A stretch of 4,570 nucleotides of DNA from Escherichia phage ECO95 1-6-1. The stretch's first letter is position 1, and each line of letters starts with the position of its first letter. The translations under genes and the position numbers were made by a program. Below are positions 3,151 through 3,304 of this stretch, one piece after another. The notes below the pieces were generated by a model that was given only the letters and a program-made list of their open reading frames with translations, did not search any database and was not told the origin of the DNA. The stretch is from the sequence record OR845286.1. One strand, 5' to 3'.

Positions 3151-3304
3151 TCAGATTAGCTGTTTTCATGCTTTGAGGTGGTTTTTATATTTTATTTAAA
3201 ATCAATTGGTTATATGAAATTATGACTGTATATTGTTCCAGTGCTTTTTGTTGTTTATGCTATTATGCAAGCAATTCTGTATAAACATTTGTATAAACAA
3301 TAAT
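3151..3304. promoter_or_regulatory. Very AT-rich non-coding segment (about 25% G+C by hand count) between the two terminator copies; candidate regulatory region or small-RNA locus
   Basis: Base composition is far below the flanking genes. Only tiny ORFs (22 aa or less) without Shine-Dalgarno sequences on either strand. Contains direct and inverted short repeats (separate feature). Bounded on the minus strand by terminator A upstream and terminator B downstream. Confidence 0.3.
3278..3299. repeat. Tandem direct repeat tgtataaaca x2 with 12-bp periodicity, plus inverted partner tgtttat at 3252..3258
   Basis: Exact 10-bp repeat at 3278..3287 and 3290..3299, separated by tt. The heptamer tgtttat at 3252..3258 is the reverse complement of the ataaaca core. 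Resembles a direct-repeat operator of the response-regulator type, but I cannot assign it to a known consensus. Confidence 0.4.

Follow-up and report, generated by a model that had tools for sequence, protein, structure and literature searches.

The attP site of phage lambda carries arm-type sites for its integrase, named P1, P2 and P'1-3, together with sites for IHF. Cis-mobilizable elements (CIMEs), familiar from the ICE families of Streptococcus thermophilus, are kilobases long and are mobilized in trans. Closer to the locus described here are the genomic islands that occupy the bacterial gene fis, of which the Williams laboratory reported 3565, with the identity block TACGGCATGAACTAA (PMC10111431, NAR Genom Bioinform 2023). 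The smallest of these islands measure 2-4 kb, and excision of one Klebsiella fis island within TACGGCATGAACTGATAC was confirmed experimentally. In Salmonella, according to the same study, yhdJ is the normal neighbour of fis (57,620 of 57,705 genomes). The study also described a doubled motif, tgTGTATTGCantgTGTATTGCa, in the attP of helper-embedded PICIs ('HE-PICIs'), situated at 81 bp on the upstream side and at 132 bp on the downstream side of the attP centre; it was not found in the attPs of fis PICIs. Capsid-forming PICIs ('cfPICIs') were defined separately, with EcCIEDL933 as the prototype (PMC10085698).

The DNA analysed here, referred to below as 'the window', is a stretch of 4,570 nucleotides from the record of Escherichia phage ECO95 1-6-1 (OR845286.1). 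Its genes all lie on the minus strand. They are dusB (partial); fis (3366..3662, minus; identified from its open reading frame and translation, and from Pfam HTH_8, Fis family); yhdJ (2163..3047, minus), an adenine DNA methyltransferase gene (Pfam N6_N4_Mtase) and the normal Salmonella neighbour downstream of fis; a DUF2556 gene of the yhdU type (1916..2107, minus); and a gene for a membrane GGDEF-type protein. The YhdJ protein is identical to that of S. Typhimurium (Q7CPL9), and the names in its cluster are all Salmonella enterica. Within the fis coding sequence there is a 24-nt imperfect direct repeat (3404-3427 and 3446-3469; 71%), probably the product of chance or of coding constraints. 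The interval between fis and yhdJ is 318 bp long in the window, and it contains an AT-rich island. We describe below the evidence that this island is, with high probability, the 233-bp residue of a cfPICI of the fis-PICI group, the interior of which has been deleted.

A preliminary description, made from the sequence, had drawn attention to very low G+C content, to the lack of a credible open reading frame, and to an exact tandem repeat, and it had suggested an operator or a small-RNA locus. The composition and the coding content are as it stated: G+C amounts to 26-27% over 3150-3299, and the only reading frames in 3148-3367, of 32 and 40 amino acids, both run into or overlap the flanking terminators. 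The tandem repeat is likewise as described, with TGTATAAACA occurring exactly at 3278-3287 and again at 3290-3299, the two copies separated by TT and phased at 12 bp. On chance alone this is only moderately unusual. Dinucleotide shuffling of the island produced an exact run of at least 10 nt at a period of 10-30 in 24 of 2000 trials (1.2%), and shuffling of the whole window did so in 20 of 300 (6.7%). What gives the tandem 10-mer its significance is comparison with other genomes, not the window sequence itself. An inverted heptamer, TGTTTAT, is present at 3252-3258, as had been noted. It was dropped as a feature; its conservation is limited to the Enterobacteriaceae subgroup, and where these have GTTTAT, the Proteus and Xenorhabdus elements have GTTTTC or GTTTAC. 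A longer inverted repeat (3245-3258 and 3293-3306) was also dropped: its right arm is made by the deletion junction, and it is therefore absent, as a feature, from intact elements.

On either side of the island stands one copy of a 78-nt direct repeat; the two (3070-3147 and 3303-3380) are 82% identical and spaced 233 bp start to start. Each copy includes a bidirectional terminator hairpin and the last codons of fis. A consensus rule for terminators missed both hairpins on account of their long loops, and they were folded instead. The hairpin next to yhdJ (3073-3108) has a predicted energy of -23.7 kcal/mol (z = -3.4) and that next to fis (3306-3341) one of -18.3 kcal/mol; each lies between an A-run and a T-run. 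The twin terminators and the fis remnant had been remarked upon in the preliminary description. Both are genuine and provide the main clue, but it was not recognized that they are the signature of the attachment-site duplication that an integrated mobile element leaves behind.

In other Salmonella genomes the site is empty. Ten Salmonella contigs that encode an identical YhdJ have a fis-yhdJ spacer of 85 bp, and this spacer is identical to window positions 3048-3147, as well as to the interval of the window minus 233 bp. The excess of exactly 233 bp is bounded by a duplicated sequence, AGTTCATGCCGTA (3135-3147 and 3368-3380), which we refer to as the core. It matches the published identity block of the fis PICIs (TACGGCATGAACTAA/TACGGCATGAACTGATAC; PMC10111431). 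The copy nearer to yhdJ is directly continuous with fis in the empty-site genomes.

Occupied sites are represented by two short contigs of Salmonella Kentucky. One (OR851362.1, here L129) is 100% identical to window positions 1297-3299 and then enters an integrase gene, int; the sequence past the match reads CTTTGGGCTGG...ATGGC, which is the start of int. The other (OR851399.1, here L130) begins in the right end of a PICI and continues as window positions 3277-4570 at 99.8% identity. In both, the motif pair is TT-spaced and preceded by C, so that the two pairs together constitute a perfect 23-bp direct repeat, C + TGTATAAACATTTGTATAAACA. The two records were deposited as 'Salmonella phage S.Kent 1-2-1'. 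They are contigs of 2 kb, with roughly 4x coverage, that represent the yhdJ side (L129) and the fis/dusB side (L130) of the Salmonella chromosome joined to PICI ends; evidently the phage preparation contained host or satellite DNA, and the records do not represent a phage genome.

Intact relatives of the element were found by blastn, with positions 3140-3310 as the query against plasmids and phages. At 96% identity it matched unannotated DNA directly upstream of a site-specific integrase gene in Klebsiella pneumoniae records; 'phage' records that are in truth induced satellites were matched as well. One Klebsiella record (L002) is a circle of 15,995 bp that encodes an integrase, a hypothetical protein, AlpA, a KilAC antirepressor, an Icd-like protein, a DUF927 primase, the major capsid protein, an HK97 protease, a portal, head-closure and head-tail connector proteins, an HNH protein, TerS and TerL. 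No tail or lysis genes were found in the circle, and the gene set is that of a cfPICI as defined in PMC10085698. An element of the same kind lies between yhdJ and fis in E. coli PCP06171, and AlpA is encoded by all of the intact relatives. Two further Klebsiella records (NZ_MK433207.1 and NZ_CP129771.1), labelled as plasmids, contain the chromosomal acrEF/envR-fis region with an integrated fis PICI, which suggests chromosome-derived segments on plasmids or mis-assigned replicons.

The attP of the Klebsiella circle reads, in order, the end of the late operon; the P pair, TGTATAAACA-TC-TGTATAAACA; a copy of the fis terminator and 3' end; the core, AGTTCATGCCGTA; a 130-bp AT-rich P' arm; the P' pair, TGTATAAACA-TT-TGTATAAACA; 21 bp; and the ATG of int. 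The two pairs start at 2324 and 2557, 233 bp apart; in the integrated E. coli element they are 15,913 bp apart. The 233-bp unit of the window differs at 2 of its 233 positions from the attP reconstructed from PCP06171, and at 11 of 233 from the Klebsiella attP. Its P' arm on its own is 96% identical to the DNA just upstream of the Klebsiella int, has one mismatch to PCP06171, and is 100% identical to L129.

Read against this anatomy, the fis-yhdJ interval of the window falls into the following parts. Positions 3048..3134 (minus) are the original fis 3' UTR with its native terminator, directly upstream of yhdJ. Next comes the attL core (3135..3147), an orphan fis end with the YGMN codons at 3136-3147 and the original TAA at 3133-3135. 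The P' arm (3148..3277, plus; 130 bp), which lies between core and int in intact elements, includes a near-invariant block, ACTGTATATTGTTCCAGTG, at 3225-3243. The doubled motif, TGTATAAACA-TT-TGTATAAACA (3278..3299, plus), is also the deletion junction, with the P' and P copies fused in it: the sequence to the left of 3278 is P'-type and that to the right of 3299 is P-type, and the junction reads GCAAGCAATTCTGTATAAACATTTGTATAAACAATAATAAAAAAGGCGC. The P arm (3300..3367) supplies the replacement fis 3' UTR, with the second terminator hairpin. Its spacer is identical in the Klebsiella attP (L002 2346-2415), in the right end of the E. coli PICI and in L130. Last is the attR core (3368..3380; TACGGCATGAACT on the fis sense strand), an exact duplicate of 3135-3147. 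The last four codons of fis in the window, its TGA stop (3366-3368) and everything downstream are a satellite-derived copy; in the empty-site Salmonella alleles the stop is TAA. Integration changed the stop codon from TAA (3133-3135, now orphaned) to TGA (3366-3368) and left the Fis protein the same. Of the genes of a functional PICI or cfPICI (integrase, AlpA, primase, packaging and capsid), the window contains none. A second, longer similarity between the two attP arms occurs just before the doubled motif. It extends over window positions 3225-3258 and L002 positions 2283-2320, and reads TATTGTTCCAGTGCTTTTTGTTGTTTAT in P' and TATTGTTCTGGTGCTTTTTTGTTTGTTCA in P, in which it forms the 3' half of the late-operon terminator. 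The similarity may go back to an internal duplication of some age, or may mark another site for a protein.

An exact-pattern scan of the GTDB species representatives, with one genome per species, located the doubled TGTATAAACA in some 35 Enterobacterales loci, in Klebsiella, Enterobacter, Pluralibacter, Pectobacterium, Brenneria, Erwinia, Proteus, Providencia and Xenorhabdus. The repeats are conserved in related genomes, one of the checks that the preliminary description had proposed. Nearly all of the loci place the motif either 12-25 nt upstream of an integrase gene, the product of which is 65-100% identical to the Klebsiella integrase, or 69 nt past the fis stop. There are three exceptions in the order: a tandem junction with int approximately 270 nt downstream (L006), and two loci (L038 and L045) near which no fis and no integrase gene were found. 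Intact elements have the doubled motif exactly twice. Measured from the start of the pair, the core is at -141 in 14 of the 16 loci next to int, and at +90 to +93 in 16 of the 18 loci that adjoin fis in other species; L018, with a third tandem copy, has its core at +103, and L014 has a variant core. The 130 bp between core and motif pair are fixed across relatives, and this arm aligns without gaps in 15 elements, with conserved blocks CATGCT, AATCA and ACTGTATATTGTTCCAGTG. Within it, AATCAATTGGTTA (3200-3212) is the sole match in the window to the IHF consensus, WATCAANNNNTTR (0.21 expected), and its AATCA core is conserved in the 15 elements.

Several loci depart from the simple arrangement. 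In Xenorhabdus lircayensis (NZ_JACOII010000038.1; L006, 4864-5160) there is a hybrid att junction in the order P arm with doubled TGTATAAACA, terminator, core, P' arm with doubled GTGGGGTAATCGGTGGGGGG, and an integrase that is 65% identical. It resembles the internal junction that would be expected where two different fis PICIs, with different arm specificities, are inserted in tandem. Three tandem copies of TGTATAAACA with the 12-bp phase are found, in one arm or the other, in Proteus columbae (L008, 4560-4593), Xenorhabdus yunnanensis (L025) and X. stockiae (L018), so that the arm motif varies in copy number. In Photobacterium lucens (NZ_SSMG01000085.1; L039, approximately 7108-7175, minus) there are five tandem copies of CCTGTATAAACA, and neither fis nor a related integrase was detected near them; the 12-bp unit is the same, and its use there is unrelated or only very distantly related.

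In the genome scan the invariance of TGTATAAACA is partly a matter of ascertainment, because the exact motif was the search query. We corrected for this with integrase relatives collected from IMG/VR by protein similarity and not by motif. In this set, all integrases in which residues 1-70 are at least 80% identical keep the doubled TGTATAAACA, and these include Proteus-type integrases whose identity over the rest of the protein is only about 66%. Where identity in the N-terminal region falls to 53-66%, with that of the next domain as high as 87%, other doubled motifs with the 12-bp phase (GTGGGGTAC, GTGTATCAC and GTGTAGTCA) occupy the same position. Integrases with another target site have GGAACAAC. 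In pattern scans GTGGGGTAC and GTGTATCAC turned up in the P arm as well as in the P' arm, with the distances to the core unchanged, and two contigs carry both GTGGGGTAC copies. The N-terminal part of the integrase (Int) matches Pfam Arm-DNA-bind_3 (PF13356; residues 8-92, E = 2.4e-19). The motif, then, is present in both attP arms, co-oriented and at a fixed distance from the core, and it covaries with the N-terminal domain. From the fixed distance, the alternative motifs in both arms and the covariation, the repeats are most likely arm-type sites of the integrase, read by its N-terminal domain. The earlier idea of an operator survives to the extent that the repeats, almost certainly, form an array bound by a protein; the reader that we infer is a tyrosine integrase encoded by the satellite and since lost, and not OmpR, CpxR or PhoB.

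Another reader is conceivable, namely the satellite's AlpA, an excisionase/regulator, or some other accessory protein. AlpA is present in every intact relative, and PMC10111431 names it as an alternative for the analogous HE-PICI motif. The identity of the motif follows the first 70 residues of Int across lineages, however, a comparison made for Int alone, and we consider AlpA or another accessory protein the unlikely choice, if the strongest competitor to any part of our account.

Our account of the scar, with Int as the reader, is as follows. A satellite tyrosine integrase would have recombined attP with the last codons of fis. Because attP brings a replacement fis end and terminator, integration duplicates that segment. 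The integrated element of about 16 kb, in a Salmonella lineage, would later have lost everything between two 23-bp direct repeats, of which one lies 21 bp upstream of int, the other close to the far end of the element. The window has exactly the sequence that a deletion between them would yield. It retains one motif pair, which suggests that the interior was lost by recombination between these repeats. Excision by the integrase would restore the 85-bp site, and we infer from this that the loss was due to the host, most likely to short-homology recombination or to replication slippage, with the crossover somewhere inside the repeat. The product would be attL, the P' arm, one doubled motif, the P arm and attR, a net gain of 233 bp over the empty site. 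As long as the element was intact, the N-terminal arm-binding domain of Int would have bound the doubled motif, and the putative IHF site between motif and core would have bent the DNA in the fashion of a lambda-type intasome. Since the motif is close upstream of int, its occupancy probably also autoregulates int. In the window the doubled motif is left without its cognate protein and probably without a function.

Quite different is the possibility that the island is expressed. A promoter left in the P' arm, which could be the former int promoter on the plus strand or an AT-rich pseudo-promoter on the minus strand, would fire, and the transcript would stop at a bidirectional terminator after 70-150 nt; such an orphan transcript might have been co-opted as a small RNA. 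Intact elements must have an int promoter in the P' arm, since the int ATG is only 13-25 nt past the motif. Promoter-like hexamer pairs do occur inside the island on both strands, and the flanking hairpins could terminate transcription from either. A consensus scan found four such pairs where 1.9 +/- 1.3 are expected, which is not above background. Two candidates for the int promoter, TGcTATTAT (3258-3266) and TTTTCA-17-TATATT (3163-3191), were set aside as too weakly conserved in the 15-element alignment. A search of Rfam at permissive E-values returned no match that reached its gathering score. Of the two sub-threshold matches, both discarded, STnc40 scored 23.9 bits against a cut-off of 45 and covered the terminator only; the other was SurA. 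Shuffled sequences fold as well as the island's minus-strand RNA does (z = +0.46), and the fold signal on the plus strand comes from the terminator. Moreover, the locus is absent from conspecific genomes, so that a conserved role in the host is not possible. The preliminary proposal of a small-RNA locus thus has nothing in support, and we give an orphan transcript of any kind a slim chance.

Slimmer still is the chance that the deletion is an artefact of assembly, in which the source strain carries an intact 16-kb satellite and the assembler took a short cut through the 23-bp repeat from the attL side to the attR side. The junction does fall exactly in a perfect 23-bp repeat, which a de Bruijn graph of small k could mis-resolve, and a second scar was not found. 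None was present in 5426 complete E. coli genomes, 19 of which carry the P' arm with no collinear full-length match. In these 19 matches, which reach 89% coverage, the attL terminator and the P' arm are joined non-collinearly, and they were rejected as scars. Each record has a second matching place, consistent with an occupied site, and the one that was opened (PCP06171) contains a full element. Neither was there a scar among the GTDB species representatives, including the 18 fis-adjacent loci of other species, and the doubled TGTATAAACA is absent from the Salmonella species representatives. A junction-specific 49-mer had zero matches in JGI metagenome contigs, and the junction-spanning frames of 40 and 32 amino acids, sought in a gene-call index as a means of counting scar-bearing assemblies, had no record there. 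On the other side, the k-mers of modern assemblers exceed 23, and at a repeat of this kind such programs end the contig instead of making a false join. True deletions between short direct repeats are common, and the window is otherwise contiguous and collinear with Salmonella references.

Least credible is a host operator or yhdJ promoter, in which the phased repeats, because they resemble response-regulator boxes in being directly repeated 10-mers at about one helical turn, and because they lie upstream of yhdJ, would bind a regulator of the OmpR, CpxR or PhoB type that controls yhdJ: the pho box is 11 bp, at odds with the 12-bp phase; across more than 30 Enterobacterales loci the repeats are confined to the vicinity of satellite integrases or to satellite ends, and unrelated repeats replace them when the integrase N-terminal domain changes; and other Salmonella with an identical YhdJ and the 85-bp spacer have no island, so that it cannot, as had been suggested, be the one place in which the native yhdJ promoter could sit. 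Binding of H-NS, also raised at the outset, is plausible for AT-rich foreign DNA, and would be a consequence of the island's origin rather than an explanation of it.

We take the island, then, to be a mobile-element scar of the ordinary kind, and neither a small-RNA gene nor a host operator; today the locus is probably without function. For annotation, what appeared to be an AT-rich 'regulatory island' becomes a dated historical event: this Salmonella lineage would once have carried a capsid-forming satellite that targets fis, and would have lost it imprecisely, not by integrase excision. The legacy is that fis, the gene for a global regulator, now ends with a foreign TGA stop, 3' UTR and terminator, and that yhdJ is set apart from it by two terminators. 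To a specialist in integrative elements nothing here will be unexpected. The modest new points are the doubled arm-motif architecture of the fis PICIs, the switching of the motif with the arm-binding domain of the integrase, and the capacity of short arm repeats to act as deletion endpoints. The scar does retain two intact cores, a full P' arm, the IHF-consensus site, one doubled motif and the P arm. There is some small prospect, judging from these parts, that it is a minimal cis-mobilizable att cassette, served in trans by the Int and AlpA of a related fis PICI, or that the former int leader gives rise to a short terminated RNA beside fis. If it is such a cassette, it could be excised as a mini-circle, or could act as a preferred landing pad that seeds tandem arrays.

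How, finally, does the locus compare with the systems with which we began? Like a CIME, the scar is flanked by attL and attR, lacks recombination genes of its own, and is an internal deletion of an integrative element. Unlike the CIMEs, it is a mere 233 bp long, with a single, shared, arm-site pair, and its mobilization would probably be inefficient. The attP of lambda resembles that of the fis PICIs in having direct repeats in both arms, an integrase with an N-terminal arm-binding domain, an IHF consensus between arm site and core, and int adjacent. The fis-PICI integrase, however, is P4/CP4-57-like (Arm-DNA-bind_3), and its putative sites are two half-sites per arm. With the cfPICIs (PMC10085698; prototype EcCIEDL933), the parent elements share int, alpA, primase, capsid, protease, portal, adaptor/connector, HNH, terS and terL genes, the lack of tail and lysis genes, and a size of about 16 kb. 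The window keeps none of these genes, and so it is a derivative of the group rather than a member. With the fis PICIs themselves (PMC10111431), the window has in common the target site, the identity block (TACGGCATGAAC plus the stop), the replacement terminator from attP and the yhdJ neighbour in Salmonella, and its arms are 96-100% identical to those of intact members. It differs from them in consisting of 233 bp of att arms, with no integrase, alpA or other satellite gene, and a scar this small is not among the islands listed in that study, which reach down to 2-4 kb. The HE-PICI motif, lastly, has the same organization as the one described here: it is a tandem with a 12-bp phase, present twice, co-oriented and asymmetric about the core, and the integrases are closely related. 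The distances from the attP centre are about 86 and 148 bp in the fis PICIs compared with 81 and 132 bp in the HE-PICIs, and the sequences differ, tgTGTATTGCantgTGTATTGCa there and TGTATAAACA here. The fis PICIs share, in short, the doubled-motif architecture of the HE-PICIs, with sequences that are specific to each lineage.
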